Shown here: piece after piece, positions 5,128-22,103 of the stretch
How the letters are laid out: every line of letters starts with the position of its first letter
Position numbering within the stretch: position 1 is the first letter of the stretch
From: an uncultured Candidatus Saccharibacteria bacterium
Lineage (GTDB): Bacteria > Patescibacteriota > Saccharimonadia > Saccharimonadales > JAGQNJ01
DNA length: 64,000 nucleotides
Reading direction: 5' to 3'
Assembly (NCBI GenBank): GCA_964491925.1
Contig: CAZBGZ010000003.1
Span: forward strand, 22,234-86,233
Notes under the pieces: model-generated
What the model was told of the DNA's origin: nothing
Databases searched by the model: none
What the model saw: only the letters and a program-made list of their open reading frames with translations
Position numbers and translations under genes: made by a program

Positions 5128-5152
5128 TCGAAAAGGTAAAAGAAAAGATCGA

Positions 5153-5608
5153 ATGAGAAAACTTTGGATATTTTTAGGACGAATCGCTGGGTACATGTCT
5201 TGGCCGCTAGTTTGGATTGTTATCAGGCAAACAACCAGAACTCGTATATTGTTAAACTCTGGCGATAAAATTTTGGTCACAAAAGGTTGGCTGAGTACTG
5301 GCAAATGGTCATTGCCTGGTGGTGGAATGCATCGGAGAGAAAAGCCAGCAGATGCAGTTCTCAGGGAACTCCGAGAGGAAACAAATATAGAACTGAAAGA
5401 AACCCAGCTCAAATACCTGGGGACAAAAAAACAAACTAAAGGATTGCCCATTAGCTACCACCTTTTTTCGGCCTCTGTGTCAGAAGAATTAGCCTTCAAA
5501 AGACAGAGATTTGAAATTGCGGATATACAGTGGTTGAATCGACGAGAATTATTAAGTAAATCTGTAGAGCAACACGTGCGCGAAGCATCCCAAGCGATGG
5601 AATCATAA
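5153..5608 (+). CDS. NUDIX hydrolase
   Basis: Nudix box GKWSLPGGGMHRREKPADAVLRELREETNI. ATG 5153 is chosen because the ORF-track start at 5102 overlaps the pcrA 3' end. Confidence 0.75.
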   Translation: MRKLWIFLGRIAGYMSWPLVWIVIRQTTRTRILLNSGDKILVTKGWLSTGKWSLPGGGMHRREKPADAVLRELREETNIELKETQLKYLGTKKQTKGLPISYHLFSASVSEELAFKRQRFEIADIQWLNRRELLSKSVEQHVREASQAMES

Positions 5609-5696
5609 GCGGTGATTTGCTACACTGATAACGGCTCTATAGGGAGTAGCTTTTCTTTATGTTACAAAAACTCTCAATATATGAGCCGTCTAAAAT

Positions 5697-6899: not shown

Positions 6900-7031
6900 G
6901 CGCGGCATATGCACCCGAATCATTTCATAATTATCTATCTTGTATGCATTCAATCTAGTGATATTGAATCTCTTTAGCTTGCTTTGAGAAGATAAAATAA
7001 GTACTGAGTAATATATTATTAGGAGATTGTT

Positions 7032-7541
7032 ATGTCGCGTAGTTATTTAGTTCCGGGTTCTAATGAGGTGGCTGCCGATGTTATGGTTGCGGTGGTTATT
7101 GGCCCAGGGCAGTATTTAATGAGTGATCTAGCTACCAAATTTGGCATTCTACACTCAACAGTAAGTCGTGAAACAAAGCGATTGGCAGGCGAGGGGTGGA
7201 TCGGGAACTCAGATAGGCAAACCCAGGATCTAGCGTATAAACCACTAGTTCCACTTCCAGGTTTTTGGAGGGCATACAATCAGGCAGTGAATGCCGCCCA
7301 CAATGTCGGACCACAACTAGTGTCTGTTTTTGAGGATTCTATTGATGAACGATATGAAATGGAGCAGTTAGAACCGTCAACTTATGATTTTTACAGAGCA
7401 CAAGCGATATATTTAGGGGGTGCAGCAGTTTTGGGTGAGGAATTTGATCTAAACGTTAACACATCAGGTAATTGGTTCGCAGGGGTTCCTGGATGGCGCG
7501 CTCTAATTGATATCCAAGTTTCGCAGATTCCTGCTTCATAA
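7032..7541 (+). CDS. hypothetical protein, possible winged-helix DNA-binding N-terminus
   Basis: 169 aa with an AGGAG SD at 7021-7025. The segment LMSDLATKFGILHSTVSRETKRLAGEGWI looks like an HTH. Confidence 0.5.
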   Translation: MSRSYLVPGSNEVAADVMVAVVIGPGQYLMSDLATKFGILHSTVSRETKRLAGEGWIGNSDRQTQDLAYKPLVPLPGFWRAYNQAVNAAHNVGPQLVSVFEDSIDERYEMEQLEPSTYDFYRAQAIYLGGAAVLGEEFDLNVNTSGNWFAGVPGWRALIDIQVSQIPAS

Positions 7542-7565
7542 GAATTTTTGTTAAGCTGTTGATAT

Positions 7566-7631
7566 ATGGGCGAAACTATACCAAAGAAATCACTAGGCCA
7601 ACACTGGCTCCATGATGACATTAATGAATGA
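7566..7631 (+). pseudogene. 21-codon remnant of an rsmA/ksgA N-terminus
   Basis: ATG..TGA translates to MGETIPKKSLGQHWLHDDINE*. The 12 residues KKSLGQHWLHDD are identical to residues 5-16 of the intact RsmA at 15269. The DNA differs at most synonymous positions. Confidence 0.6.
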
Positions 7632-7658
7632 GCTGTTAAAAAAGTAAATATAATCGTC

Positions 7659-8492
7659 TTAGAGTATGATCAAGATTAGTCCAGCGACGATAAGGATCCC
7701 AGTTAAAATTTTTTGCAGTAAAGCTTTCTCCTCAAAGTATCGTTGTCCGAAGACTACTGACCAAAACATCGCAGTCGTTCGTTTTAATACTGTAATTATT
7801 GAAGTAGGAGCGAAGTAAAATGCAAAGCTAATCATTACAGTCTCCATCGCAGAGGCTATTGATTGCAAACCAGTAACGGATTTGACTAAAAGTTTTAAAT
7901 CGATCGGTTTATTCTTTACAATTGAAGCGATAAAAAAGTATACAACTACTATTAAAGTAATAATAAATTGTTCTGCAGCTACACTGTTGAACTTTGTAAT
8001 ATCATACTTGAATAATGATAGAGTGATTGAAGCCATCATCGCACCAACGATTACCACCCAAGCTCCTTTTTTAGATTTTGGATTTCGAAAAAATAACAAT
8101 AATAGACCGCAGAACATAGCCGTAACCCCGATTATTTGGGTCAAACTCAGAGAATTACCCAAAGCAATATCGATACTTAGAACTAAAGGTATGGTTAATA
8201 ATCGTAGATAGGCAAACGTGCTACGCTCTGCTTTGATAATCCCAACAACCATTATATGAGAAAGGATAATTTCGAGTATGACTCGAGGTATAAAAGTCGG
8301 TAATGAGGCAGTGTTAAAAGTAAAATCTGCACCAAATCCAATTGTTATTAAAAAAAATACTGACACCCAAAAGGCGTTTAAAAACCCTAATGAATATATA
8401 TTTTCACGAGCTTTTTGAACTTGCATTTTGCCGATAGATTCAGAAATCTCTCCAAACAGTGAACCCAACAAGATTAATAGTCCTGCAAACAT
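7659..8492 (-). CDS. DMT/EamA-like multi-pass membrane transporter
   Basis: 277 aa, about 10 hydrophobic helices, internally duplicated architecture. The family call is tentative. Confidence 0.6.
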   Translation of the reverse strand: MFAGLLILLGSLFGEISESIGKMQVQKARENIYSLGFLNAFWVSVFFLITIGFGADFTFNTASLPTFIPRVILEIILSHIMVVGIIKAERSTFAYLRLLTIPLVLSIDIALGNSLSLTQIIGVTAMFCGLLLLFFRNPKSKKGAWVVIVGAMMASITLSLFKYDITKFNSVAAEQFIITLIVVVYFFIASIVKNKPIDLKLLVKSVTGLQSIASAMETVMISFAFYFAPTSIITVLKRTTAMFWSVVFGQRYFEEKALLQKILTGILIVAGLILIIL

Positions 8493-8607
8493 ACCCTCAA
8501 TTAAAACATAAAAATAAGGTATTTGTGTTTCAGCTTTTTGTGTATTTATGTTTGATTATTTATACGGGGGGTTATAATAAATCCTAAATAATAAGCGTGA
8601 GGGTTTT

Positions 8608-10503
8608 ATGAAAGTTTATTTTTCTAGGCGGTCGTATATACCATATTTGCTAGCACTACTAGTAGTAGCTTTATGTATGTTCGCCGTATTTCCAACAAAG
8701 GCTTTTGCTGCTACCACATACACCGTTAATTCAATAGGTGATGACCCAGATGCTACTCCTGGTGACTCAGTCTGTGAAACCGCTACACCAGACGAATGCA
8801 CACTACGGGCTGCCATACAAGAAGTAAATGCCGGCAGTGGTGGTGACACCATCAACTTCAACATCTCTGGCACCGGCGTGCATACACTTACTCCAGCCAG
8901 TGCTTACGACACTATTACCCAAAGTGTAACTATAAATGGCTACTCACAACCTGGGTCAGCTGTAAACACAGCTGTAGCCCCAGCACCACTCAATGGTACT
9001 TTGACGATTGAGATTGATGGTACGAATGCGGGGGGTGTAGATGGGTTGGGTATTAACGCTAATAATGTCACAATTCAAGGCCTTGTTGTTAATAGATTTA
9101 ATCAGAATGGTATTGTAAGTTCGTCTGATAGCGATACGGTTATTAGTGGCAATTACATTGGTACCGATACTATGGGAACTTCTGATTTAGGAAATCAAAA
9201 TAATGGGATACGAGTAGAAAGACATGCTACGATTGGTGGTACCGCAGCTGCTTCGAGAAACTTAATTGCAGGCAACAACAACCGTGGAATTTATGGTGCT
9301 AGTGGAACGAATGTCATTCAGGGCAACTACGTTGGCCTTGCAGCTGATGGAATTACCAGGCTCAAAAATAGTGGCAGGGGGGTAGAAGCTACGGGCGGAA
9401 ACAATACTATTGGGGGGACTTATACAGGAGCTATGAATGTTATATCGGGCAATGGCGATACCGGATTGATTATAGGTGATGGCGACGGTGATACTGTAAG
9501 AGGTAACTATATTGGATTAGATTATACCGGCATATCTTTACTTGGGAATGATGGACCCGGTATCTTTCTTATAGGTGGTACAAATTCTATAATCGGTGGC
9601 ACTTCTACAGCTGCTCGGAATTTTATTGCTGGTAATGCGATTGCCCAAGTAGCTGTATATGCAACATCTGGCGCAGTTGTGCAGGGTAATTATATTGGCT
9701 CTGATAAAGATGGAAATAGCGTCAGCAACCCTAATGGCAGTTATGGTGTAGCGGTTTATAATAGCAACGATAACAACTTAATTGGTGGCACGGGCGCTGG
9801 CGAAGGTAATAAAATAGCCTTTAATAAAGCTAATGGAGTTGTGATCGCTAACTTACCCGGCTTTGGCGGCAATGCACCACTTAACACCTCTATAATAGGC
9901 AACGATATCGAACAAAACGCACTAAGCGGCATTCGTTTATGTACTGATGATAATGCCGACTTTGTCTGTGACACCCCCGAGCCTTATTCTAACGATGCCG
10001 GTGACCCAGACGAAGGGCCTAATATGTATATCAACTTCCCAGTAATCAACTCTGCCAACAAAGGTAGTGGCCAAGTAACTGTTAATTACGATTTAGATAT
10101 TAACCCTGCAGAGGTTGGTGCGACCGGCTATAGTGTAGATTTCTATGCGAATAGCACCAATGCTCGTGAAGGCGCCATCTATTTAGGCTCAGACACTGTA
10201 GCCGGTTCAGTTACTGGCCAATCGGCTACTCTTACTCTGCCAGGCTCTGTACCAGCCGACTATTATGTAACAGCTGTAACCACCATGACCGATGCCTCTG
10301 TTGACGGCTTTGGGCACAGCTCAGAGTTCTCAGCCCCAGTACTAGCTGTTGTTGGATCAGCTGGTAGTACTATCTCAACCACAACCGACTCCTTAGCCAA
10401 CACCGGTGATAACACCCATTTGATTGAGGTTATGGCGTCTATGTTCTTAGTTACGGGGTTAGTTGGTAGTGTGTTCTTACTCAACAATGGGAAGATGGTC
10501 TAG
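8608..10503 (+). CDS. secreted parallel beta-helix repeat surface protein with CSLREA-like N-domain and LAxTG sorting signal
   Basis: Signal peptide ending AFA/ATTYTV. CTLRAAIQEVNA motif. Many GNYIG/IxGN beta-helix repeats. C-terminal LANTG followed by a hydrophobic helix. GAGGG SD upstream of the ATG. Confidence 0.75.
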   Translation: MKVYFSRRSYIPYLLALLVVALCMFAVFPTKAFAATTYTVNSIGDDPDATPGDSVCETATPDECTLRAAIQEVNAGSGGDTINFNISGTGVHTLTPASAYDTITQSVTINGYSQPGSAVNTAVAPAPLNGTLTIEIDGTNAGGVDGLGINANNVTIQGLVVNRFNQNGIVSSSDSDTVISGNYIGTDTMGTSDLGNQNNGIRVERHATIGGTAAASRNLIAGNNNRGIYGASGTNVIQGNYVGLAADGITRLKNSGRGVEATGGNNTIGGTYTGAMNVISGNGDTGLIIGDGDGDTVRGNYIGLDYTGISLLGNDGPGIFLIGGTNSIIGGTSTAARNFIAGNAIAQVAVYATSGAVVQGNYIGSDKDGNSVSNPNGSYGVAVYNSNDNNLIGGTGAGEGNKIAFNKANGVVIANLPGFGGNAPLNTSIIGNDIEQNALSGIRLCTDDNADFVCDTPEPYSNDAGDPDEGPNMYINFPVINSANKGSGQVTVNYDLDINPAEVGATGYSVDFYANSTNAREGAIYLGSDTVAGSVTGQSATLTLPGSVPADYYVTAVTTMTDASVDGFGHSSEFSAPVLAVVGSAGSTISTTTDSLANTGDNTHLIEVMASMFLVTGLVGSVFLLNNGKMV

Positions 10504-10582
10504 CCAACAAAGGCTACAACAAGCTATATTTGACAGGGTTGTTTTAAATGATATAATCCAAAATATTAGTTTTTGAACGAAC

Positions 10583-11242
10583 ATGATCGGAGCAGACATT
10601 AAAACTTTCTTTATCCGGGCTAGTTTAGTCTTAGCAACTCTTGCACTGAGTATTGCTTTTATCCAGCCTATTTATGCTTTTACTCCGATCATGACAGATG
10701 ACGTTATGGGCGGGAATCAAAAGCCCTTCGAATCCTCCACTGAATCTACCAATTTAATTCGTTGGAAGCCATGCGGTACAATTGAATACGTCATCGACGT
10801 GACTGATGCACCAATTGGTTGGGTGCATGACATCCATGATGCTTTTAGAGCAGCCTCCGTGGCTACCGGCATACCTGTGCGCTATGCTGGGCGTTGGCCA
10901 CACGGACAGTCGCATAGCAGTCGTGACCCTGTGCTCGTCTATTATAAATACGATAAAGGGTTCCCTCAGCATAACGCAATAGCCTACACTCAGATGGATA
11001 AAGATTTAAGTGGACATTGGATAATTGGTGGATATATTATTGTTGATCCTGAGATTGCACAATTTAATCATCGATACCACAGAAGAACAATTTTCCATGA
11101 AGTTGGTCATGCATTTGGTTTGCCTCATCCAGGCTCGAGATACTACGGTGTTAGTGTTATGGGATATGCGAACGCACCTTACAAGCCCTTTGATCTTTGG
11201 ATGTTTAAATTTGTGGGGCGTCAGCCTATCGAATGTAGATAA
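10583..11242 (+). CDS. secreted zinc metalloprotease (metzincin, matrixin-like)
   Basis: 219 aa with an N-terminal signal/TM and the HEVGHAFGLPH (HExxHxxGxxH) zinc-binding motif. Confidence 0.75.
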   Translation: MIGADIKTFFIRASLVLATLALSIAFIQPIYAFTPIMTDDVMGGNQKPFESSTESTNLIRWKPCGTIEYVIDVTDAPIGWVHDIHDAFRAASVATGIPVRYAGRWPHGQSHSSRDPVLVYYKYDKGFPQHNAIAYTQMDKDLSGHWIIGGYIIVDPEIAQFNHRYHRRTIFHEVGHAFGLPHPGSRYYGVSVMGYANAPYKPFDLWMFKFVGRQPIECR

Positions 11243-11334
11243 TATAATTTCGTTAAACAAATACACTTGTGTTTGAGCTTATGCTATAATGTCCCCAGTT
11301 AAGCAGGTGAGCGGATACGCTTTATTATGGGAAA

Positions 11335-14300
11335 ATGAAAAACTTACGGAAAATCATAGCCTTAAACATTGTTTTTATTGCTGTTTTTGGCGTCTTTTTA
11401 CTGTTGGGCTCTCACAACGCCTTTGCAGCAACTTACACAGTTACGAATACCGATGATTCGGGGGCTGGATCGCTGCGCCAAGCTGTAGATGATGCTAACA
11501 ATAACGTCGGTCATGACCAGATAGATTTTAATATTGGTGCCGGCGTGCAAACCATAACCTTAGGGTCAACTATAAATGTTTCAGACCCTGTGAAGATTAA
11601 CGGTCTTTCAGCATCTGGCTCTGCGTGCAATGGCACGAGCTCAACGCTGAAAGTAGTTATAGAAAATAATGTCATAGGGTTAGGAGTCGGCGCAGCAGGC
11701 ACCGAAATAAACGGATTGGTTTTTGGCCAAGGCAACGCACTAATTGCGGATAGTGCAGATAACGCAATAATTCGGTGTAACTTTTTCGGCACGAACGCTG
11801 CTGGGACTGCAGCCGTAAGTAGCGGTAGTCATGGTGGGGTGTATACATACGGAGTCAGTGGAACAACTATCGGTGGTGATGCCGTGACTGATATGAATTT
11901 ATTTGGAAAGTACGCCATACACATCGAAGGCACCTCTCAGACTATAAAAAACAACATTGTAGGCACCGATATTACCGGCACTATGGCTCTCGGTATAGAT
12001 GACTACGGAGCTATTTTGCTCACAAATGTGTCGAATACAGTTGTCAGTAACAACCTGGTATCTGGAGCTACCGGTAGTGGAATACATTTTTATTATGGTA
12101 CAGACAGCGGCAATACAATTAAGGGAAATAAAATTGGTACAAATTATGCTGGTACTGCTGCGCTCCCAAATTCGGGTGCTGGTATCTCATCATGGGCTGC
12201 ACACAGTAATGAAATGATCGGGGGTCCAAACGAGGCAGATAGAAACATAATATCCGGCAATAGCGACTACGCTATTAAAGGCCTAAGCATAGGCGTAACG
12301 ATTCAAAACAACTTTATTGGTACAAATGCCGCAGGCGATGCGGCAATACCCAATGCCGTTGGTGTAGGAATTGATTGTGGGGATGCAGACTGTAGTAGTG
12401 CTCACATAATAGACAACGTCATTAGTGGTAATGGTAATAACGGGCTGTATCTTGGCGGAATCGGAAACCATCTTGGGGCGGTTGTTCAGGGCAATCACAT
12501 CGGCACCGACATAACTAACACTTTAGATCTCGGTAATGAACTAGATGGAATATTTGTAGGTACTGGAGGCGATAGTGGACGATTTCTCATTGGTGGTACT
12601 GGCGCAAACGAAGGTAACACCATTAGGTTTAATGGAGGTCATGGTATTGGTGTGAATTATTTCTCTGGCGGAAAAGCTAGTTTGCTAGGAAACAGTATAT
12701 CGGACAACGGTTTACTTGGCATAAGCCTAGGTAGTTTTGGAAGCCTTGAGAATGGTCTCAACCATACTGTCAACGACTCGGGGGATGGTGATACTGGACC
12801 AAATGATTTGCTTAACTATCCGATTGTTACGCAGGCTACAGATGTTTCTGGCCATACCAACCTTAATTTCGACCTTGACGTCCCTGCGGGTGATTACCGC
12901 ATAGAATTCTTTAGTAACACCGAGGCTGATCCTAGCGGTTATGGCGAAGGAGAGACATATTTGGGATACGAGGATATAACCAGTACAGGTACAGGTTCAC
13001 AAAGTTTTACCACTAGCGTGAGTGGCACAGGGCATACTCATTTAGCAGCCACAGCCACTTTAATAGATGGCGACAGCCCAAGTGGTTTCGGCCCAACTAG
13101 CGAATTTGGCAAGTTTGAACCAGTAACTGATCTAGAGGTTGCTAGTGACGACGGCGTAACAACAGTTCATTCAGGAGATAGCAATACTTACACTTTTACT
13201 GTAACTAACAATGGACCATCAGCTATTGATCACTTTAGGCTCAATAATGGCGATTTTATGGATGAACCGACATTTGAAGTTATTGCTGAAGGCTCTACTG
13301 CCTCGGATACCGGTAGCTTTAGCGGAAATGCCTGGGAAAAGGATTGGGACGGTACACTAGAGACCGGGCAAACCTTAGTTTTTCAAATCCACGGCGTAAT
13401 AGGTGGTGATAACTACGGCGATATACATTCTAGTCGTGCGTGCGTAGCTAACCTGGAGTTTGAAGGTAATAACACATCGGATTCTAACGAAGAAAACAAC
13501 TGTGGAACCGATGATGATACTAACTTTCCTGCTCCAGTCGCGGATGGAGAAATTACAAAAACATTGAATTCACCAGGCACAATTACAAACGGTCAGCAAG
13601 CTACCTATAAACTTACATATACTAATCATGGGCCAGATGTTGGTGGAGTAAACCCATTTTATATATATGACCTTTTGCCTCCAGGCTTAACGTTTGCTTC
13701 CGCGACTGACGGCGGAATACATCCTTTGGGCGATGACGGTATATACGTACCTTGTGATAGTAACCCCGAACAATCTTGCTGGATTATTGGTTCAGCCGGT
13801 TCTTCCCCTTGGGCTTCTCATCCTGGCTCGCTGATATATGCTGTATATATAGGCGGGCAAACCATTGGCCAAACCATTGGTGTAGGAGAGTCAGTAAGTC
13901 TAAACATCACGGTTGATGTTGCAGACCAAGAAGACGGTGCAACTGTTATAAACTGGGCTCTGTTGTTTGCCCCTAGCGACAGTGACCCAGAAGCAGGTGC
14001 TATTGAAGATTCATATGAGACCGAAGGTGGACCATTTGACCTTGTTAACAACGATATCACCCATCATACTTATAACCCTAATGTTCCTCCAGATGGCGAC
14101 CTAGATGGAGTAACTAATGCGGTAGAAAGCGCAGGACCAAATAATGGTGACGCCAATGACGATGGTATAACTGATGCCGACCAGCCAAATGTGGCGAGTT
14201 ATGTAGACAGTGTTACTGGGCAATATGTTGTAGTCGAATCTAGTTGCCCTGTTGTCTCAGGTGCGGGCGTGGTGGCTGAGTCTAGTGACGACCCAGATGC

Positions 14301-14784
14301 TGATTACAGCTATCCCGCAGGGCTCGTTAATTTCACCACAAACTGTAGTACGCCAGGCTCCGAAGCAACTATTACTCAGTATTATTATGGTTCATTTGAT
14401 CCAACCAAATTGGCACTGCGCAAATGGAACCCTAACACGCACACGTATACTTCACTAGAAGATGTAGACTTATCCAGCGTAACAGTTGGTGGTCACAGCG
14501 CCATCAAAGCCGTCTACCAAATCACCGATGGCAGCAGTCTCGACCAAGACGGTATAGCCAATGGGACAATTGTTGACCTGGTTGGGCCAGCATTATCGGC
14601 TGACGGGAGCTCTAGCGGTTCATCAAACGAATCAAGGAGCACTAGCTCAGCAAAAAATTCAAGTGACGACCTTGCCGATACAGGTGATAACACGGGGGTT
14701 GTGATAACTGCCGGTGTGGTCTTGCTTCTGGCGGGTGTAACAAGTTTGACCTTATGGGTTAAAACTTCTTCTCCAAGAAAGTAG
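11335..14784 (+). CDS. large cell-wall-anchored surface protein (beta-helix repeats, DUF11-like repeats, LAxTG signal)
   Basis: 1149 aa. Signal peptide ...AFA/ATYTVT and a GSLRQAVDDANNN motif paralogous to the 8608 protein. NNxIGTN beta-helix repeats. TVTNNGPS and TYTNHGPD repeat-domain motifs. C-terminal LADTG, a hydrophobic helix, then KTSSPRK. Confidence 0.75.
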   Translation: MKNLRKIIALNIVFIAVFGVFLLLGSHNAFAATYTVTNTDDSGAGSLRQAVDDANNNVGHDQIDFNIGAGVQTITLGSTINVSDPVKINGLSASGSACNGTSSTLKVVIENNVIGLGVGAAGTEINGLVFGQGNALIADSADNAIIRCNFFGTNAAGTAAVSSGSHGGVYTYGVSGTTIGGDAVTDMNLFGKYAIHIEGTSQTIKNNIVGTDITGTMALGIDDYGAILLTNVSNTVVSNNLVSGATGSGIHFYYGTDSGNTIKGNKIGTNYAGTAALPNSGAGISSWAAHSNEMIGGPNEADRNIISGNSDYAIKGLSIGVTIQNNFIGTNAAGDAAIPNAVGVGIDCGDADCSSAHIIDNVISGNGNNGLYLGGIGNHLGAVVQGNHIGTDITNTLDLGNELDGIFVGTGGDSGRFLIGGTGANEGNTIRFNGGHGIGVNYFSGGKASLLGNSISDNGLLGISLGSFGSLENGLNHTVNDSGDGDTGPNDLLNYPIVTQATDVSGHTNLNFDLDVPAGDYRIEFFSNTEADPSGYGEGETYLGYEDITSTGTGSQSFTTSVSGTGHTHLAATATLIDGDSPSGFGPTSEFGKFEPVTDLEVASDDGVTTVHSGDSNTYTFTVTNNGPSAIDHFRLNNGDFMDEPTFEVIAEGSTASDTGSFSGNAWEKDWDGTLETGQTLVFQIHGVIGGDNYGDIHSSRACVANLEFEGNNTSDSNEENNCGTDDDTNFPAPVADGEITKTLNSPGTITNGQQATYKLTYTNHGPDVGGVNPFYIYDLLPPGLTFASATDGGIHPLGDDGIYVPCDSNPEQSCWIIGSAGSSPWASHPGSLIYAVYIGGQTIGQTIGVGESVSLNITVDVADQEDGATVINWALLFAPSDSDPEAGAIEDSYETEGGPFDLVNNDITHHTYNPNVPPDGDLDGVTNAVESAGPNNGDANDDGITDADQPNVASYVDSVTGQYVVVESSCPVVSGAGVVAESSDDPDADYSYPAGLVNFTTNCSTPGSEATITQYYYGSFDPTKLALRKWNPNTHTYTSLEDVDLSSVTVGGHSAIKAVYQITDGSSLDQDGIANGTIVDLVGPALSADGSSSGSSNESRSTSSAKNSSDDLADTGDNTGVVITAGVVLLLAGVTSLTLWVKTSSPRK

Positions 14785-15231: not shown

Positions 15232-15251
15232 CTTGGGATTACAAAATTGTT

Positions 15252-15260
15252 TGCTACACT
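15252..15260 (+). promoter_or_regulatory. extended -10 promoter (TGcTACACT) of rsmA
   Basis: Lies 8 nt upstream of ATG 15269 with no SD sequence. Confidence 0.45.
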
Positions 15261-15268
15261 GATCTAAT

Positions 15269-16054
15269 ATGACTGGAGTTAAAAAGAGTTTGGGTCAGCA
15301 TTGGCTGCATGATGATAACGCACTTAGGGCTATGGTAGAGTCATCTTTAGTTAAAAAAACAGATAACATTCTCGAAATTGGACCAGGGCTTGGGACTTTA
15401 ACGGATGAACTCTTGAAAACTGGCGCAAAAGTGACTGCCTTGGAGTTTGACCATGAACTAGTACTGAAACTGCAGAAAAAATATTCAGGAAATGCCCAAA
15501 TTGACGTCAGAGAGGGTGACATTCGCAGGTTTGATTTTTCGTCTATGGCCCCCGGCTACAAAATAGTAGCGAACATTCCATACTATTTAACCGCTAACTT
15601 GCTGCGATCGTTGATCGATACAGACAACAAGCCGGTCATTGCATCGTTACTAGTGCAAAAAGAAGTTGCCGTGAGAATCGCCGCAAGACCTGGCCAGCTG
15701 TCTTTTATATCTGTTGCAACCCAAGTTTTTTATGATGCAATTCTCAGCGATTTAGTCCCGGCCCATTTGTTTGACCCACCACCAAAGGTGGATTCTCAGA
15801 TACTGATATTAGTGAAACGAGATCAGCCGTTGTTCAATAACCTAGATACAGCGGTATTTTTCAGGCTATTAAAGGCAGGATTTGATCAAAAAAGGAAAAA
15901 GATAAAAACCAGCCTAGCTGGTGGGCTGGGAGTAGGCAAGGGCGAAGTCACGAAACTGTTAGCCACTGCCAACATTCACAGCGATCTGCGCCCGCAAGAA
16001 CTAACCCTAGAACAATGGCACAAACTGTATTCTGTCTACCTGGCTTCCCTTTAG
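15269..16054 (+). CDS. rsmA: 16S rRNA (adenine1518/1519-N6)-dimethyltransferase
   Basis: 261 aa with SLGQHWLHD, the SAM motif LEIGPGLGTLT and NIPYYLT. Confidence 0.9.
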   Translation: MTGVKKSLGQHWLHDDNALRAMVESSLVKKTDNILEIGPGLGTLTDELLKTGAKVTALEFDHELVLKLQKKYSGNAQIDVREGDIRRFDFSSMAPGYKIVANIPYYLTANLLRSLIDTDNKPVIASLLVQKEVAVRIAARPGQLSFISVATQVFYDAILSDLVPAHLFDPPPKVDSQILILVKRDQPLFNNLDTAVFFRLLKAGFDQKRKKIKTSLAGGLGVGKGEVTKLLATANIHSDLRPQELTLEQWHKLYSVYLASL

Positions 16055-16189
16055 TCCCCCTACCCTACTGTTGTAAAAATAAAACACCTTCAAATAATTT
16101 ACCGTGTTTTCCGCTAATAGAATTTTCCATAATACTCCCCTATTTTTGATTTTGACACTTCCCCACTTTCATTTCCTAAAATAGCGCAA

Positions 16190-16207
16190 TTGTGAGATAT
16201 CTCACAA
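16190..16207. promoter_or_regulatory. perfect 18-bp palindrome TTGTGAGATATCTCACAA (operator-like)
   Basis: Read directly. The half-site AATTGTGAG matches the half-site of the symmetric lac operator. It lies just downstream of a TTGACA ... TAAAAT promoter-like pair at 16152-16182. Confidence 0.4.
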
Positions 16208-16219
16208 AAAGGGAGTAAT

Positions 16220-16262
16220 AAAAAAAGCACCAGTAAAACTGATGCATTTTTGGTGGAGCACC
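16220..16262 (-). repeat. duplicate of the tmRNA 3' end (GCTCCACCA) plus terminator
   Basis: Minus strand reads GGTGCTCCACCAAAAATGCATCAGTTTTACTGGTGCTTTTTTT. Compare the tmRNA end, GCTCCACCAAAAACGCATCTCAAAAGAGGTGCTTTTTT. The hairpin stems differ by compensatory changes. Confidence 0.55.
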
Positions 16263-16392
16263 TAGAAAAAAGTTCACCCCTCATCTTTGCAGAAATAGAA
16301 AGATGGCGTTATTTACTCTGGGACGAGTATATTGAGTTCAAGAGGGGACAAGAACCACGAAAGAAGTTACTTATCCCCTGAAGGTATACGCC

Positions 16393-17037
16393 CTAGGCAG
16401 CTATTTGATTAATGACTGTCTCAGCACCATCTGCATATACCAATAGTCGTTTCCGTGATGTGGAGCCTACGCCAACTACTCCATGGGGTTTTGTAGCAAA
16501 ACCAAACCCTTTATCTTCGTTTGGTGGCAGAACCAGACCATCGATAGCTACGAAGTCGGCACAACCGCTTATGACGATTATTTCATTGGAGTCAATTTTG
16601 GGCCTGCGACCATTTATTGTGTAGTGTAAATCTCCCTGTACATCCCAGTTAAATATCACTGCATGACCATCTAAAAAGTCTCTGTGCTCGTCAAGCACCA
16701 TGTCTTGCCTGGCTTCATGTCGCAATGAAACTTGTATCTTATTTGCGTCTGGACTATTTATACGATTAAAAAGCGATATGCGACCCATAGTGCGTGCCAG
16801 TGGACCAGCAACAGGATGTTGCTCCACTATGTCAGTAGAGCATTTGCCATTAGGAGGAACTGGTAACTTATCCATCAAGGCTAGAGCTTCAGGAGTCAGC
16901 ACGTCAGATATGTGAGCATAGTGGCCCTCGACAGGAGCTTTTGTGTATTCATGAACCCACAACATGTCCAAGTCTATAGGGTGCTGCAAATATGGTTCTA
17001 AAGCAGGGTCTGGATGAGCAAACTCTCTGATTAACAT
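16393..17037 (-). CDS. hypothetical protein (weak HxD...H pattern, possibly cupin/2OG-oxygenase-like)
   Basis: 214 aa. Its own TGgTATAAT box (17045-17053) sits 7 nt before the ATG. There is no recognisable family; DEHRDF...KPHGV is only suggestive. Confidence 0.55.
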   Translation of the reverse strand: MLIREFAHPDPALEPYLQHPIDLDMLWVHEYTKAPVEGHYAHISDVLTPEALALMDKLPVPPNGKCSTDIVEQHPVAGPLARTMGRISLFNRINSPDANKIQVSLRHEARQDMVLDEHRDFLDGHAVIFNWDVQGDLHYTINGRRPKIDSNEIIVISGCADFVAIDGLVLPPNEDKGFGFATKPHGVVGVGSTSRKRLLVYADGAETVINQIAA

Positions 17038-17107
17038 AATGTTTATTATACCATAAGAGATTTAATCTGTCGATAAGCTATAGTGTCCTACTTTAGGTTT
17101 CTGTGAA

Positions 17108-17138
17108 ACAAAAAAGCACCTCTTTTGAGATGCGTTTT
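17108..17138 (-). terminator. intrinsic terminator of ssrA
   Basis: Minus strand GCATCTC-AAAA-GAGGTGC followed by TTTTTT, immediately after the encoded CCA. Confidence 0.7.
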
Positions 17139-17546
17139 TGGTGGAGCTGCCGGTTACTGCCACCGGGTCCGCGGGATTATCTTTGTTAGTCGTCTACAGG
17201 TATATTCTGCTTAGTTGTCTTAGAAACCTCGTCTTTAAACAGACAAAATAACGAAGAATCGCAATCCTAAAGTCTTAGTCCAACTTACGGATCGTAAGCT
17301 GGAAGCAACCCTGGAATATAGCGCGTCGCATCACTACCAAGATATCGTGATAGACACGGCTTAAATAATTAAACTTAAGCGGTTGTGGCTACAGGTGCCT
17401 CGAAAGCAGTTTTTAGGCTGTTTACGAAAGCAACTGATAGACCACGTAATTTAGAATTTGCATCTAAAAAAGTTTACCTATAACGCTGATAAGCGACCTG
17501 CTGATCTAACTGATAAAGTCCTACGTCGAGCTTGAAATTCAGCCCC
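17139..17546 (-). ncRNA. ssrA: tmRNA (ssrA), one-piece, CCA encoded
   Basis: The 5' end GGGGCTGAATTTCAAGCTCGACGTAGGAC matches the tmRNA 5' consensus (GGGGCUGA...UCGACG). The 3' end CAGCTCCACCA pairs with it, giving the G3:U alanine identity pair. The putative tag ORF at 17461-17375, after TTTTTTAGAT, reads ANSKLRGLSVAFVNSLKTAFEAPVATTA*. Confidence 0.8.
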
Positions 17547-17603
17547 GTATCTGAGCTAGCGAAAATACACTAATACTCATAAGCTACCTCTGTAACTAAC
17601 TAT

Positions 17604-17612
17604 ATTATACCA
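17604..17612 (-). promoter_or_regulatory. extended -10 promoter (TGgTATAAT) upstream of ssrA
   Basis: The minus strand reads TGGTATAAT about 58 nt upstream of tmRNA G1. This implies a 5' leader removed by RNase P. Confidence 0.4.
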
Positions 17613-17700
17613 CTTATGCCATAAAATATGAACCTTATTACTTTTTTGAGGTAAATTATCCATAACCATATATAAAGCCCAGAAAGTCCTTGAGCCCATC

Positions 17701-17709
17701 TGCTACAAT
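17701..17709 (+). promoter_or_regulatory. extended -10 promoter (TGcTACAAT)
   Basis: Lies 9 nt upstream of ATG 17719. Confidence 0.45.
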
Positions 17710-17718
17710 GAAGACTCG

Positions 17719-18372
17719 ATGGATAACCACCCTACAAATCCTAAACTGAATAGAATTGCTTGGGCTCTCGGCATCTTTGTCTCATTGGTGGCAGTTCTTA
17801 ACTGGGGTCAGGGGATTGATTGGCAATTTTCTACAATAACAGCATATAGTCTATTCCCTCTTTTTGGATTACTAGCTTTTAGCCTGATGTGGACCCATTA
17901 TATCCTTGGTGCGATGCGGCGAAAAATGGCCGTAAACAAATCTGTTGTCAAAGACTATTTTACAATAACAGGTTGGGTTGTTCTGCTATTAATCTGTTTG
18001 CACCCAGGCCTACTTTGGTTTCAGTTATGGCGTGATGGTTTCGGCTTTCCGCCCAGCAGTTATCTGAATAATTATGTCGCGCCAACGCTAAAATGGGCAG
18101 CAATGTTAGGCACTGCGAGTTTGCTTATGTTTTTGGCATTCGAGTTCAAGCGTTGGTTTGGCAAGAAAAAATGGTGGGTTGCTATAGAATACGCTAATGT
18201 TGCTGCCATGTTTGCAATCTTGGTGCACAGCCTGAAGCTGGGCACAAATCTGCAAACCGGAGCACTAAGATTGGTATGGATTTTTTACGGCATAACATTG
18301 GTCATTTCTGTAGTTTATATTTACAGTGGTAAACATAGTGATAAAATAACGAAATTGAAAGGAAACCAATGA
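17719..18372 (+). CDS. integral membrane protein (about 6 TM helices, conserved His residues; possibly heme-b/ferric-reductase-like)
   Basis: 217 aa, hydrophobic, with His residues in several helices (MWTHYILG, CLHPGLLW, LVHSLKLG). The 4-nt overlap with the next ORF suggests an operon. Confidence 0.6.
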   Translation: MDNHPTNPKLNRIAWALGIFVSLVAVLNWGQGIDWQFSTITAYSLFPLFGLLAFSLMWTHYILGAMRRKMAVNKSVVKDYFTITGWVVLLLICLHPGLLWFQLWRDGFGFPPSSYLNNYVAPTLKWAAMLGTASLLMFLAFEFKRWFGKKKWWVAIEYANVAAMFAILVHSLKLGTNLQTGALRLVWIFYGITLVISVVYIYSGKHSDKITKLKGNQ

Positions 18373-18788
18373 AAAAAATAGTAGCAATAGTAGCCATAGT
18401 AATTTTCGTATTGATCGGCGGAGTTTTTATGTTAACTAGGGGTTCAAATGAAACGGTCGCACCAGAAACATCACCGGCCGAAAAAACTAAAGATATACCA
18501 GCAACAGGGGTTGATTCCGCAACATCAACGATTACCTATACTAATGATGGTTTTAGCCCTTCAACAATAACTGTATCTGCGGGTACGACGATTACTATAA
18601 AAAATGATTCATCTAAGAGCCTACAATTTGCATCCAACGACCACCCTACTCATACAAAAAATCCAGAACTAAACGGGTCAACAATCGACGCGGGGCAGTC
18701 ACAAACCATAACTGTCACCAAAACGGGGACGAGCGGTTATCATAATCACTTGAATCCCAGTGACACTGGTACAATTGTTGTCCAATAA
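18369..18788 (+). CDS. membrane-anchored extracytoplasmic beta-sandwich (cupredoxin-like fold) protein, no Cys ligand
   Basis: 139 aa with an N-terminal TM helix. The domain ITYTNDGFSPSTITVSAGTTITIKN...GYHNHLNPSDTGTIVV resembles cupredoxin-like domains but lacks cysteine. Confidence 0.5.
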   Translation: MKKIVAIVAIVIFVLIGGVFMLTRGSNETVAPETSPAEKTKDIPATGVDSATSTITYTNDGFSPSTITVSAGTTITIKNDSSKSLQFASNDHPTHTKNPELNGSTIDAGQSQTITVTKTGTSGYHNHLNPSDTGTIVVQ

Positions 18789-18833
18789 TCACTAGCAATA
18801 TTTTGTAACTACTAATAATGCTATAGTTATGGC

Positions 18834-19097
18834 ATGAATACCTCGGTGGAGTCTGGTTTCGCAGATCTAAATTTCGCTAACCATGAGGCTAGCTGGGGCT
18901 TGACGGGCGCAGCAGGGGCGTTAGTAGTAGACGGTATTGCTGGCGCTAAACAAATATATCATTTGCTAGCCGGGCATCCGGAACTAACGCGAGCTGATGA
19001 GGTGGCTTTTGTTGTAGCAAGCGCTGCGGTTCTGGCATGCACTGCTATTTGGTCCCATGGAGTTAATCGGGCACGCCAAGTAGTTTCTGTCAGGTAG
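18834..19097 (+). CDS. small hydrophobic hypothetical protein
   Basis: 87 aa. TGcTATAGT at 18819-18827 lies 6 nt before the ATG, which supports expression. Confidence 0.45.
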   Translation: MNTSVESGFADLNFANHEASWGLTGAAGALVVDGIAGAKQIYHLLAGHPELTRADEVAFVVASAAVLACTAIWSHGVNRARQVVSVR

Positions 19098-19110
19098 GGT
19101 ATATATGCAT

Positions 19111-19140
19111 TTGACTACTGTAGTCCGCTCGAACTACACT
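19111..19140 (+). promoter_or_regulatory. sigma70-type promoter TTGACT-N18-TACACT of the trehalase gene
   Basis: Read directly. The -10 box ends 8 nt before ATG 19149. Confidence 0.5.
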
Positions 19141-19148
19141 GTTAACAC

Positions 19149-20411
19149 ATGTTCGAAAAAGCAAAAAAAACCATAAAACGAGTTACTTTTCATAAGCCCT
19201 ATATGGACCTTGACTCTGATGATGTAGTCAAAGCGCGCGAATATATAGCCGGTTATTGGAAAAAGCTAGAGCGCTACCACCCCAAAGATGACGAGACATT
19301 GCTTGGTCTGCCTAATACATACCTAGTCCCAGCCAGCGAAGAGGGCCATGCCTTTGACTTTAACGAAATGTATTATTGGGATAGTTATTTTATGGTCCAG
19401 GGCATGTTAGACAAAGAGCACCAGGAATTAGTCGAGGGGATTCTAGAGAACCTGATTTATATGCAAAAACGGTTCAAAATAATTCCTAATGCCTCGCGCA
19501 CCTATCTGATGGGGCGTTCTCAGCCACCCTTTCTAACCAGTTTTATATTTGATGTCTACGATGCATACCACAAAGATAAAAAATGGTTAAGAGAGCATAT
19601 TGCAGTGGCTCATAACGAGTATTCGACCGTTTGGCTAGGAACAAAAAAACCTAATTGGCGCGAAGTTTATATGGGTCTCAGCCGTTATTACGATATAAAT
19701 ATGCTCAATGATCTGGCCGAGGCCGAGAGCAGCTGGGATATGACTACCAGATTTAATCGGCGGGCACTTAACTATCTACCGATAGATCTAAATACACTGC
19801 TTTACAAATACGAGTCAGACTTTGCTCGGGCAGCAAAAATATTAGGCAACGACCAGGACGCAGGTGTTTGGCTAAGCCGTGCCCATGCTCGCAAGAAAAC
19901 CATAGATCAGCTGATGTGGAGCACGGTACACGAGTTTTACTATGATTATAATTTTGTTAAACGCAAAAGGGGAAATGTGACTTCCCTAGCCGGATTTTTC
20001 CCACTGAACGCTGGAATGGTAGATGACGAACGGGCAGAGAAGCTGGTCAAAGCCCTCCGTCGTTTCGAGAATAAAGGTGGGCTTAGCACAACAGACATGC
20101 AAGCAGTCAATCAAATGCTGCCAGGCAGCTTGCCAGTTCAGTGGGCGCATCCCAACGGTTGGGCGCCACTACATTACGTTGTCATAAAGGGGCTAGAGCG
20201 ATACGGATATCACGAAGACGCCAAGAGAATAGCTTTGAAATGGCTACACACAAATCTAGAGTGGTTCAATAAACACGGCGTGTTTTTAGAAAAATATAAT
20301 GTTGTAAATCCTACAAAACCACCACAAAAAGGTGTGTACCCATCGCAAACCGGTTTCGGCTGGACTAACGCCATTTTTGAACGCCTATGCCAAGACTACA
20401 TTGATAACTAA
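19149..20411 (+). CDS. treA: alpha,alpha-trehalase (GH37)
   Basis: 420 aa with trehalase signatures FNEMYYWDSYF, RSQPPFL and QWAHPNGWAPLHY. Confidence 0.85.
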   Translation: MFEKAKKTIKRVTFHKPYMDLDSDDVVKAREYIAGYWKKLERYHPKDDETLLGLPNTYLVPASEEGHAFDFNEMYYWDSYFMVQGMLDKEHQELVEGILENLIYMQKRFKIIPNASRTYLMGRSQPPFLTSFIFDVYDAYHKDKKWLREHIAVAHNEYSTVWLGTKKPNWREVYMGLSRYYDINMLNDLAEAESSWDMTTRFNRRALNYLPIDLNTLLYKYESDFARAAKILGNDQDAGVWLSRAHARKKTIDQLMWSTVHEFYYDYNFVKRKRGNVTSLAGFFPLNAGMVDDERAEKLVKALRRFENKGGLSTTDMQAVNQMLPGSLPVQWAHPNGWAPLHYVVIKGLERYGYHEDAKRIALKWLHTNLEWFNKHGVFLEKYNVVNPTKPPQKGVYPSQTGFGWTNAIFERLCQDYIDN

Positions 20412-20450
20412 CTGCGCGGCACATAGCATCGTTGCAAATTCCGCCACTCC

Positions 20451-20474
20451 TGAGCTGTATGCACATACAGCTCA
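20451..20474 (+). terminator. 10-bp perfect hairpin (TGAGCTGTAT-GCAC-ATACAGCTCA) downstream of the trehalase gene, no U-tract
   Basis: Read directly, 40 nt after the stop codon. Its function as a terminator is inferred. Confidence 0.35.
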
Positions 20475-20600
20475 GTCCGGTGCTCGTTTGCGCCTTGCTC
20501 TGTATCCACGCAGTTACTTATCAACGTTTGTCATCAAATACAGTCATTCGATTATAGACAAGGAATTTAATAATTTATTTAGTGTGTATACTTTTATTTA

Positions 20601-21248
20601 ATGCAACGCAAATATACTGATGTACCGCCTCAAGCAATTTATGGATTTGCAGAATATCTGACTGAAAAAGCGGTTATTTATAGAGAAGAACCGTTTCAAT
20701 TGAGGGCTGGTCCTGAATCAAATTGGTATCTCGACGTAAGAATGCCACTGGGGTTAGTTAATGCTTCTTTGTTTGTTGGCGAACTGATTGTGGCAAAAGC
20801 AGAAATACTGGGTATTGAGTGGGATGTTATGGCCGCGTCAGGCATTGGCGGTAAACCACCAATGTTTGGGGCAAGATGGGCGAGTCGCTCTCGAATTGCG
20901 GAAATTAATGATAACGATAAAGAAAGAACACTCGCAGACGACAACTATCCATACGGTTTACACCCGCCAATTTCTAGCGGAGATAGGGTACTAGTAATCG
21001 ATGATACCCTGACCAGTGGTGACTCTGTTATAACATCGATCAAAATGTCCCGAGGAATACGTAAAGATATAGAAGGAGATGGAGAATTCACTATTGCGGG
21101 CGAGCGTGGTGTTGTTGAACACGCTTTTGTGGTGGTTGATAGAAGCCAGGGAGTAGGGATTGAGGCTGTCGCTGCATATGGGGTAGAGGTCCATCCTTTG
21201 TTTGAATTTAGTGAAGAAACAGGATTGATTACTCCCATTGGGTTGTAG
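20601..21248 (+). CDS. phosphoribosyltransferase (orotate-PRT-like) with an internal insertion
   Basis: 215 aa with the PRPP-binding motif VLVIDDTLTSGDS. TATACT lies 8 nt before the ATG. Confidence 0.65.
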   Translation: MQRKYTDVPPQAIYGFAEYLTEKAVIYREEPFQLRAGPESNWYLDVRMPLGLVNASLFVGELIVAKAEILGIEWDVMAASGIGGKPPMFGARWASRSRIAEINDNDKERTLADDNYPYGLHPPISSGDRVLVIDDTLTSGDSVITSIKMSRGIRKDIEGDGEFTIAGERGVVEHAFVVVDRSQGVGIEAVAAYGVEVHPLFEFSEETGLITPIGL

Positions 21249-21268
21249 CAGTGCTGTAAACTAATAAT

Positions 21269-21583
21269 ATGAACTTGCCAGATAAGCCCACGTTGGCTGA
21301 TTACCAAAAGCTAGGTAAACAACTGATTATTGAGCGTGGTTTTGATAAAGAGACTGTGCCAGAGGTCTTCACAATTTTTGTTGAAGAAGTTGGCGAGTTG
21401 GCGAAGGCTATCCGTAAGGCTAACGGGCAAAAAACAGACAAGAACTCTAAGCACCATGATGTCGAAGAAGAGGCAGCTGATGTTTTCTGGTTGCTAATTG
21501 ACCTTTGTAACAGACTAGATATTGACTTAGAAAAGGCATTCAGGGAAAAAGAAGAAAAAAATAAAACCAGAAATTGGGAATAA
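21269..21583 (+). CDS. MazG-like nucleoside triphosphate pyrophosphohydrolase
   Basis: 104 aa with the EEVGELAKAIRK ... EEEAADVFWLLIDLCNRLDIDLEKA pattern (EExxE ... ExxD). Confidence 0.75.
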   Translation: MNLPDKPTLADYQKLGKQLIIERGFDKETVPEVFTIFVEEVGELAKAIRKANGQKTDKNSKHHDVEEEAADVFWLLIDLCNRLDIDLEKAFREKEEKNKTRNWE

Positions 21584-21602
21584 CTAAAAAGGTTAATTAG
21601 CC

Positions 21603-22103
21603 ATGCCGGTTCAGACTGCAGGAATACTAGTTTATAGACGAAAATATAACCAATTAGAGGTATTTTTGGTACATAACGGGGGGCCATATTTCGCTAAACG
21701 CGACAAAGGCTTTTGGACTATCCCAAAGGGTAAAATTGAGGACGGTGAAGATGCTTTAACCACCGCCAAGCGGGAATTTGAAGAAGAAACCGGCCTGGGG
21801 ATGCCAGATGGGAAACTGTTAGACCTTGGTAAAATAAAACAAGTTAATAACAAGGAAGTCCAAGCCTGGGCCGTTGAAGGTGACCTGGACCCTACTAAAA
21901 TCAGCAGTAATACATTCGAGATTGAATGGCCGCCAAAAACAGGCCAAAAACAATCTTTTCCAGAAATTGACAGAGGTGAATGGTTCGACCTGCACCAGGC
22001 TGCCATAAAAATAAATGCTGGGCAGGGGGATTTACTGCGCCGTTTAGCCGACCATTTCGGCGAAACCAAGCCAGAAATCCCCGAACAAGTCCCTCTCTTT
22101 TAA
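21603..22103 (+). CDS. NUDIX hydrolase
   Basis: Nudix box GKIEDGEDALTTAKREFEEETGL. Confidence 0.8.
   Translation: MPVQTAGILVYRRKYNQLEVFLVHNGGPYFAKRDKGFWTIPKGKIEDGEDALTTAKREFEEETGLGMPDGKLLDLGKIKQVNNKEVQAWAVEGDLDPTKISSNTFEIEWPPKTGQKQSFPEIDRGEWFDLHQAAIKINAGQGDLLRRLADHFGETKPEIPEQVPLF

Follow-up and report, generated by a model that had tools for sequence, protein, structure and literature searches.

A 64,000-nucleotide (nt) stretch of DNA from an uncultured Candidatus Saccharibacteria bacterium (contig CAZBGZ010000003.1; the whole stretch is hereafter called the window) carries an 888-base cassette within the last nine bases of ssrA, the gene for transfer-messenger RNA (tmRNA). The cassette holds a cargo gene and a conserved 43-codon open reading frame (ORF), hereafter called the small ORF, and it ends in a second copy of the ssrA 3' end, hereafter called the core. 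Related genomes have an uninterrupted ssrA locus, and cassettes of the same layout with other cargo recur next to ssrA in Saccharibacteria, in some loci as arrays. The best explanation, which sequence comparison makes reasonably probable, is that these cassettes integrate site-specifically at the extreme 3' end of ssrA, with a recombinase supplied in trans. We favor this reading because the repeat always starts at the same base, because empty genomes also lack the small ORF, because the 9-nt ssrA end stands at every cassette boundary, and because the most conserved DNA of the family abuts the core.

The ssrA locus of the window and of its relatives

The tmRNA gene is intact and full-length on the minus strand (17139–17546; Rfam RF00023, 64.4 bits, model positions 1–374). 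A promoter scan places its promoter on the same strand at 17604–17632 (TTCATA, a 17-nt spacer and TG-TATAAT; 10/12 matches plus the TG), and this promoter is conserved upstream of ssrA in the relative L073. On the minus strand the gene ends in ...CAGCTCCACCA, then AAAACGCATCTCAAAAGAGGTGCTTTTTTG. Its last 9 nt, GCTCCACCA (17139–17147), form the proximal core, which would be equivalent to attL. The minus strand reads GCTCCACCAAAAACGCATCTCAAAAGAGGTGCTTTTTTG at 17147–17109 and GCTCCACCAAAAATGCATCAGTTTTACTGGTGCTTTTTTT at 16259–16220, and a repeat search returned a direct repeat of 19 nt here, 95% identical (18/19) at a spacing of 888 nt. The exact part of this repeat is 13 nt, GCTCCACCAAAAA, and the distal copy lies at 16241–16259. 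With up to two mismatches allowed, GCTCCACCAAAAAYGCATC occurs in the 64 kb only at 17129–17147 and 16241–16259 (expected 0.00 from 100 shuffles), and even the bare 9-mer GCTCCACCA occurs only twice.

Intrinsic terminators were called on the minus strand beside both copies (17133–17116 with 7 pairs; 16245–16227 with 8 pairs). The terminator T1, now directly 3' of ssrA, is the hairpin GCATCTC-AAAA-GAGGTGC followed by a T run (17110–17133, minus strand). T2, the hairpin GCATCAG-TTTTA-CTGGTGC followed by a T run (16220–16245, minus strand), matches the terminator of L073 and would be the displaced native terminator of ssrA. The upper stems of T1 and T2 differ by TC..GA versus AG..CT, which are compensatory changes. 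An alignment of 12 related copies, drawn from seven genomes, shows the six stem pairs that they share to be paired in 100% of cases, and at two of these pairs both sides have changed. A U.G wobble in the stem is invariant among the 12 copies; it would be a C.A mismatch on the opposite strand, which argues that the hairpin is selected as RNA in the ssrA-sense transcript.

Within the cassette, a promoter of TCGACA, a 17-nt spacer and TG-TATAAT (17045–17073, minus strand; 11/12 matches plus the TG) ends 7 nt before the ATG of the cargo gene, so the cargo transcript should be leaderless or nearly so. Read against the homologous cassette of contig L010, the DNA left of the ORF shows similarity in this promoter region only. 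The cargo gene (16393–17037, minus strand) encodes 214 amino acids (aa). Convergent with it, on the plus strand, lies the small ORF (16250–16381; TTG start; MVEHLEKSSPLIFAEIERWRYLLWDEYIEFKRGQEPRKKLLIP), a member of a conserved family. The distal core (16251–16259) and the adjoining 21 nt together read GGGGTGAACTTTTTTCTAGGT on the minus strand (16251–16280), the most conserved DNA of the family and the candidate recombination site on the attR side.

A preliminary description of this DNA had already reported the two minus-strand end sequences, which proved exact on re-reading. It had also proposed that the hairpins differ by compensatory changes and both fold, in agreement with the terminator calls and the pairing kept in 12 copies, and it had given the 214-aa gene its own promoter, which our scan likewise finds. 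Its picture of a one-gene cassette stands for the leaderless 214-aa gene but missed a second gene, the small ORF on the distal repeat. The operator-like palindrome and promoter-like pair that it placed just outside the distal repeat are present, but they are part of the spacer between ksgA and ssrA, which L073 keeps, and not of the element. The palindrome, a perfect TTGTGAGATATCTCACAA (16190–16207), stands in the chromosomal flank, and its orthologue in L073 (~3640–3657) sits between ksgA and the ssrA promoter.

To see this locus in other genomes, relatives were sampled via the membrane protein that adjoins ssrA, a route independent of the cassette. L073/L074 is the closest long relative, with flanking genes 80–90% identical at the DNA level. 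It has the order ksgA, ssrA, terminator and a 193-aa ORF, followed by the window's genes (cupredoxin, trehalase, MazG, NUDIX, MetRS, TatD), and it has a single core, no 214-aa gene and no small ORF. Its ssrA is directly followed by AAAATGCATCAGTTGATTCTGGTGCTTTTTTG, which over 40 nt shares 92.5% identity with the distal copy of the window, and its terminator is clearly less similar to T1 than to T2. Because the L073 ssrA is directly followed by this distal-type terminator, window 16260–17138 is, on this comparison, an insertion between the 3' core of ssrA and the native terminator. L075 is also empty, with ssrA, a terminator of the T2 hairpin type, a single core and no cassette. L001, a relative with 87% KsgA identity, ends before the informative region, and L002, L003 and L080 have no ssrA nearby.

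A second, independent pair of occupied and empty sites comes from L079 and L075, which share native flanking genes (67% and 49% protein identity). In L079 an insertion of 2469 nt is bracketed by two identical 42-nt copies in direct orientation, which begin at that G of GCTCCACCA at which the window's repeat begins. Within the insertion are genes for a sigma-70-like protein and a 217-aa protein, along with a small ORF that is truncated. The window and L079 therefore have the same base as the left edge of their duplications, despite repeats of 13 versus 42 nt. In L070 a native-type terminator follows the third core, before orf166 and a conserved membrane gene, and in L071 a native-type terminator and native-looking genes follow the last cassette. 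An alternative placement, in which the insertion lies after the ssrA terminator and the right-hand terminator belongs to the cassette, is disfavored by the L073, L079, L070 and L071 comparisons. Three of the four equalities expected of an attB x attP crossover were found: the left side of attL equals that of attB, the right side of attR equals that of attB, and the left side of attR equals the cassette arm. The fourth (attL right equal to attP right) needs a free cassette for comparison. The attL/attR reading of the preliminary description has thus held up: relatives vary, with no cassette in L073/L074 and L075, and no other RNA gene ends in the distal copy.

The ssrA module is also inverted relative to L073. 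By blastn, L073 2697–3652 corresponds to window 15251–16206 in the same orientation, 3677–4151 to 17619–17106 in inverted orientation, and 4775–9187 to 17689–22102 again in the same orientation. The inverted segment (16207–17619) comprises the ssrA promoter, ssrA, the cassette and T2, and the 193-aa ORF of L073 is missing from the window. L077/L078, the closest by neighboring gene, share the window's orientation, and L038 shows the same inversion relative to ksgA. Since ssrA and the cassette are inverted as a unit in both the window and L038, the module stays together through rearrangements. At the two junctions of this segment, compared with 3653–4774 of L073 (an 84% relative), lie the weakly similar inverted sequences CACAAAAAGGGAGTAATAA and CTCAAAAAAGTAATAA.

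Several further observations concern the tmRNA genes and their terminators. ARAGORN misses the tmRNA in the window, L018, L031, L038, L044, L050, L052, L056 and L070, where Rfam finds it at full length; the only tmRNA gene that it calls among the window and relatives is that of L036. The T loop of these tmRNAs reads GGCAGTA or similar, not the usual TTCRANT. The motif GTTTGGCTTGTGCTTGC, which resembles a -35 region, stands after the T run of many cassette and ssrA terminators (L070, L015, L047, L071, L073) and is absent after the window's T1 and T2. In L071, ssrA is followed by TTTTGTTTT with no hairpin (1880–1920). A terminator that nearly matches the window's T1 stands there 1.7 kb downstream of ssrA (200–260), behind two cargo genes; the core before it is degenerate (CTCACCA), and a small ORF is absent. 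Finally, the Logan contigs L011 and L012, which represent the window's own strain in two sequencing runs, both start at window 17167, and their first 31-mer ends 3 nt beyond the CCA end of the tmRNA. With k presumably 31 in that assembly, this start would fit a branch in the assembly graph at which co-existing variants diverge right after the core.

A family of cassettes with a conserved small ORF

The small ORF overlaps the repeat itself. The distal repeat supplies its start codon and the codons next to it, the first three codons being the reverse complement of the distal core. The family consensus begins (T/A)TG GTG GAG CAC and encodes MVEHLEKSSPLI-EEI-RWR-LLWDDY...KK--IP. The length of 43 codons is kept in 20 of 31 copies, W19, W24, P10 and P43 are invariant, and entropy is highest at third codon positions (1.19, versus 0.90 at first and 0.72 at second positions). 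The small ORF thus apparently behaves as a coding sequence, and its product, for which we found no match in Pfam, NCBIfam, PHROGs, PADLOC or PDB, may have an accessory or maintenance role.

The start of the small ORF is conserved beyond what its protein calls for. In copies retrieved without the scan pattern described below, the first 33 nt are 88–94% identical to the window and the remaining 96 nt only 58–81%, with one exception in a pseudogenized array copy (L070 copy 2, 23/33). Synonymous sites of codons 6–10 are nearly invariant. This extra conservation of the first 33 nt and of synonymous sites argues for an element at the level of DNA or RNA that overlaps the beginning of the small ORF, and we suggest that the 30 conserved nt there, together with the core, form the putative attachment site of the cassette. 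We also considered whether the distal copy mimics an acceptor stem, pairing with an upstream GGGGTG into a microhelix with a G3:U pair and an ACCA end. Folding of the window sequence was not significant (z = -0.4), variant copies in L015, L022 and L050 (copy 2) have no compensating change, and we keep the mimic only as a remote idea.

A metagenome scan with a 20-nt query ending in the distal core returned 57 loci, about two dozen of which share a longer conserved stretch upstream of the core. The small ORF and core together occur in ~26 distinct Saccharibacteria loci. Rfam detected ssrA in 12 of these, most others being too short on the relevant side, and in all 12 the small ORF lies downstream of ssrA, antisense to it and 0.4–2.5 kb away. 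The order is the same in every case (12/12): ssrA, a terminator hairpin, cargo, the antisense small ORF starting at GGTGCTCCACCA, and another terminator hairpin. Each cassette of the family has the small ORF, and each cassette boundary reproduces the 9-nt ssrA end, even where the terminators are unrelated. No tRNA gene adjoins the cassettes that lack a visible ssrA.

The cargo is diverse. It includes a GIY-YIG protein, a short-chain dehydrogenase (SDR), a HAD hydrolase, an EamA transporter, a sigma-70-like protein, a P-loop ATPase and many proteins of unknown family. Among 18 cargo ORFs compared against all loci, the only homologous pair is that of the window and L010. A 475-aa cargo protein of L044 (5921–7348) matches the PADLOC candidate defense protein PDC-M36A (E = 1.6e-31) and PHROG 30194 (E = 9.6e-59). 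Some loci are arrays, with three copies of the small ORF in L070 and two each in L050 and L015, and cores far from ssrA are often degenerate (e.g. L070 copy 2, L034 copy 1 and L071). A scan of viral contigs for the cassette backbone gave no match. In the literature on tmRNA, integrons, cassettes and islands of Saccharibacteria we found no description of an ssrA-anchored cassette system, and the cassettes are apparently a recurrent family new to the literature.

Two loci have a different build. In L034 (1106–6405), two copies of the small ORF are separated by 5.2 kb, and the DNA between them encodes an IS1595-family transposase, a Replic_Relax protein and two proteins of unknown family (550 and 239 aa); the region may be a larger element that uses the same sites. 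In L031, two copies stand head to head with identical upstream terminator flanks and a second tmRNA-like stretch, either an inverted duplication of the ssrA–cassette module or an assembly artefact.

Proposed mechanism, rival explanations and known systems

How might such a cassette arrive? In the mechanism that we propose, the cassette would consist, in the ssrA direction, of T1, its own promoter, the leaderless cargo gene, the antisense 43-codon ORF and the core GCTCCACCA. The core would recombine with the identical 3' end of ssrA, landing the cassette between ssrA and the native terminator and rebuilding the tmRNA 3' end. T1, which would have come with the cassette, would now serve ssrA, and the native terminator T2 would have been pushed to the far side. 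The gene for the recombinase would lie on a helper element or at another place in the genome.

The search for a recombinase in the vicinity was negative. The 64-kb window has no tyrosine or serine recombinase by motif scan of 57 ORFs and Pfam search of 10 unassigned ORFs, and the genes adjoining ssrA there encode a membrane protein and KsgA. The tested cargo proteins of the family loci gave no resolvase or recombinase match in Pfam, PHROG or PADLOC. Neither cassette ORF of the window matches a family in the libraries run (Pfam, PHROGs, NCBIfam and PADLOC for the 214-aa protein; Pfam, NCBIfam and PHROGs for the small ORF). These results, together with the empty sites of L073/L074 and L075, bear out the earlier suggestion of a cassette that carries no integrase.

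Several points weigh against site-specific integration, or limit how far it can be read. No recombinase was identified, and the chemistry is read from anatomy alone. The ssrA end and the distal core share only 9 nt of identity in most loci, a short stretch by the standard of classical attachment sites. The window and L070 have a similar ssrA-proximal terminator and different cargo, whereas the window and L010 share cargo and have different left-hand terminators; because of these mismatches, the terminator does not strictly travel with the cargo, and the crossover point is not pinned. Most loci were found by a 19-base pattern that is itself part of the element, which inflates the apparent conservation of that stretch and yields no frequency of cassettes among Saccharibacteria, and the ssrA loci sampled without this bias number four (two empty, one occupied, one cut off). 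Contig L010 (900 nt) begins and ends with the same 23 nt. We set aside its reading as an excised circle: a break in the assembly graph explains the overlap equally well, as would two copies of the small ORF in an array, and we do not take it as a circle because each end falls within the small ORF, in its 5' part, a stretch that arrays repeat.

The lack of a recombinase in the window and tested cargo would be expected if the locus were instead a hot spot of homologous recombination. Genes between the ssrA end with its terminator and the small ORF would then be swapped by double crossover without a dedicated enzyme, and arrays would arise by unequal crossing-over between the ~0.2-kb backbones. 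The backbone (small ORF, core, terminator and, in some loci, GCTTGTGCTTGC after the terminator) offers 150–200 nt of homology per side, terminator types are shuffled relative to cargo, and the ssrA–cassette module has remained intact through inversions. Such a scenario takes natural competence or DNA uptake of Saccharibacteria for granted. Homologous exchange probably does contribute to the shuffling of terminators relative to cargo, but we rate it unlikely as an account of the system. A first insertion would have homology on the ssrA side only, because the empty genomes (L073, L075) lack the small ORF. Further, the left edge of the duplication sits at the exact same base in the window and L079, with repeats of 13 and 42 nt, the 9-nt ssrA end marks every boundary including those with unrelated terminators, and the hot spot leaves unexplained why the start codon of the small ORF is built from the ssrA 3' end.

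A cassette might also be what decay has left of an ssrA island or prophage of the classical, integrase-bearing kind, reduced by deletions to one cargo gene and a displaced ssrA fragment, an option that the preliminary description had raised. Integration at ssrA is well known, islands there are delimited by direct repeats of the gene's 3' end (PMC4383910, PMC3146451), about half of the ssrA islands of Dehalococcoides have no integration module (PMC3146451), and the distal cores of arrays are degenerate (L070 copy 2, L034 copy 1, L071). Yet the inserts at the 12 ssrA loci measure 0.4–2.5 kb, hold no integrase fragment and all show the tidy layout of terminator, cargo and small ORF. Their right arm is a conserved, apparently coding ORF rather than a random leftover, and independent events would not repeatedly converge on the same sub-kilobase unit. 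We disfavor decay, and consider it improbable, because the same small architecture recurs in many genomes with no integrase remnant. Still less credible is a reading without mobility, in which the distal copy is a duplicated bidirectional terminator between convergent genes and its likeness to CCACCA follows from a constraint on the small protein's MVEH N-terminus. The hairpin does lie between ksgA and the small ORF, where it could terminate ksgA, and the protein sequence encoded by the first 9–10 codons of the small ORF is conserved. However, the whole segment is missing from close relatives, in which a terminator of the distal type comes directly after ssrA, so that simple terminator reuse is contradicted by the empty sites as we read them. 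In addition, the invariant U.G makes the hairpin a good one on the ssrA-sense strand only (C.A on the other), the near-invariant synonymous sites of the first 10 codons imply a DNA or RNA constraint, and L079 has a perfect 42-nt repeat. Site-specific integration at the ssrA end remains the reading that we prefer.

Comparison with known elements places such integration in context. Genomic islands integrated in tRNA or tmRNA genes are defined by tyrosine integrases that insert there (Islander/TIGER definition; PMC4383910, PMC12424338), and the cassette anatomy matches theirs in all but the defining integrase (PMC4383910). Both insert in the 3' part of the gene, where element DNA regenerates it and the displaced 3' fragment becomes a direct repeat at the far end, and both have an uninterrupted site in related genomes (here L073/L074 and L075). 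Unlike these islands, the cassette has no integrase in the element or the 64-kb window, its conserved arm is a 43-codon ORF, and the family measures 0.6–2.5 kb versus many kilobases, with a block of identity down to 9 nt at the extreme 3' end.

The ssrA islands of Dehalococcoides are larger, from ~10 kb upwards, and a six-gene module that includes the serine recombinases DsiB and DsiA is present in 16 of the 31 (McMurdie et al. 2011, PMC3146451). Insertion occurs in the T loop with a 20-bp repeat, the large serine recombinase DsiB lies next to attL, and the arrays are a main source of strain-level variation in gene content in a streamlined genome (PMC3146451). As in our family, tandem arrays bounded by 3'-end repeats stand downstream of a single ssrA, each repeat has a conserved motif just upstream, and the integration module is absent from many units. 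In contrast, units here range from below a kilobase to 2.5 kb, no recombinase was seen in tested cargo, and insertion falls 9 nt from the 3' end, inside the acceptor stem. Prochlorococcus tycheposons are elements of several kilobases with tyrosine or serine recombinases and replication modules (bioRxiv 10.1101/2020.12.28.424599). They too form islands beside tRNA or tmRNA genes in a streamlined genome and grow by successive integrations, with partial tRNA repeats separating cargo modules and newer elements pushing older ones outwards. The ssrA cassettes differ in having neither the recombinase and replication modules nor the multi-kilobase size. In behavior, the Dehalococcoides ssrA islands and the tycheposon islands are the closest to our cassettes.

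The resemblance to integrons is of another kind. Both systems build arrays of mostly single-ORF units with unrelated cargo, a conserved site-like end and one fixed site, and in neither do cassettes carry a recombinase of their own. The differences are substantial: no IntI lies next to the ssrA array, and the window has no tyrosine recombinase; junctions consist of GGTGCTCCACCA and a simple terminator hairpin, with no GTTRRRY/RYYYAAC boxes and no attC seen on inspection; a promoter and a terminator come with the cassettes; an RNA gene, with its end, provides the fixed site; and the conserved element overlaps a small ORF. Measured by the integron-array criterion of mostly promoterless single-ORF cassettes, the single-ORF arrays are those of L070, L050 and L015, and the window cassette has a strong promoter. 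Mobile elements without an integrase have a precedent in IMEX elements, which rely on the host XerCD, some of them encoding a small activating protein; they target the chromosomal dif site, not ssrA.

Going further, we tentatively entertain an integron-like platform for gene capture in Saccharibacteria. In it the ssrA 3' end would play the part of attI, and a host-encoded recombinase, recruited or activated by the 43-aa protein or the 30-nt site, would stack sub-kilobase cassettes that bring their own terminator and promoter. Saccharibacteria and other bacteria of the candidate phyla radiation have very small genomes and few recognized mobile elements. If the integron-like reading were true, a phylum thought poor in mobile elements would have an integrase-less cassette system. 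An ssrA-anchored cassette system would, if real, explain part of the strain-level variation in accessory genes of Saccharibacteria, with cargo spanning enzymes, transporters, a sigma factor and a candidate defense gene, and it would be a second, independent example of array-building single-gene cassettes beside integrons. Its precise, conserved insertion point could serve the engineering of these hard-to-manipulate bacteria. It also raises the question of the enzyme by which a 9-nt tmRNA end would be recombined with a site overlapping a 43-codon ORF.

The cargo protein and other features of the window

The 214-aa cargo protein, which the preliminary description had left without a family, belongs to no curated family and models confidently as a divergent oxygenase-like protein of the 2-oxoglutarate (2OG)-Fe(II) type. 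It has three close relatives only among 5.8 billion clusters, and an exhaustive profile search added 19 remote ones; we treat the PAS and cadherin proteins among these remote matches as compositional or repeat noise. An AlphaFold2 model from a 16-sequence alignment (pLDDT 92.2, pTM 0.91) has a double-stranded beta-helix fold. The top Foldseek matches in the PDB are mostly 2OG-Fe(II) oxygenases (prolyl 4-hydroxylases, PHD2, DAOCS, ABH8, Tpa1), with some other cupins, at probabilities up to 1.0 and TM-scores of 0.45–0.50. H118, D120, H185, R195 and R197 are conserved in the family alignments, a pattern that, on alignment, suggests the HxD...H iron triad and a basic 2-oxoglutarate residue. A profile search of the PDB reached only E = 0.2, to Tpa1. 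A role of the protein as the recombinase is ruled out by its predicted oxygenase-like fold.

In L010, the 83%-identical homologue of this protein follows another small-ORF core instead of ssrA, which means that the same cargo occupies a different position in an array. A 56% homologue in L004 has another setting: its gene ends ~140 nt from a tRNA gene (anticodon CAT; region 6655–6870), and a second copy of the last ~35 nt of the tRNA lies between the two, its T loop split by a 26-nt hairpin insert. L004 is thus another case of a tRNA or tmRNA 3'-end duplication beside this gene family, here without the small ORF.

Elsewhere in the window, 8608–14784 holds two very large ORFs of secreted or surface type (631 and 1149 aa) and a 219-aa ORF between a MarR-like gene and ksgA. 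This stretch would be another variable region, because L070 and L079 have ksgA close to a G5-domain gene. An ordinary S-adenosylmethionine (SAM) riboswitch (47905–48031; Rfam RF00162, 46.9 bits) lies upstream of the ORF at 48101–49060, which we take to be a putative metK from its N-terminal sequence.

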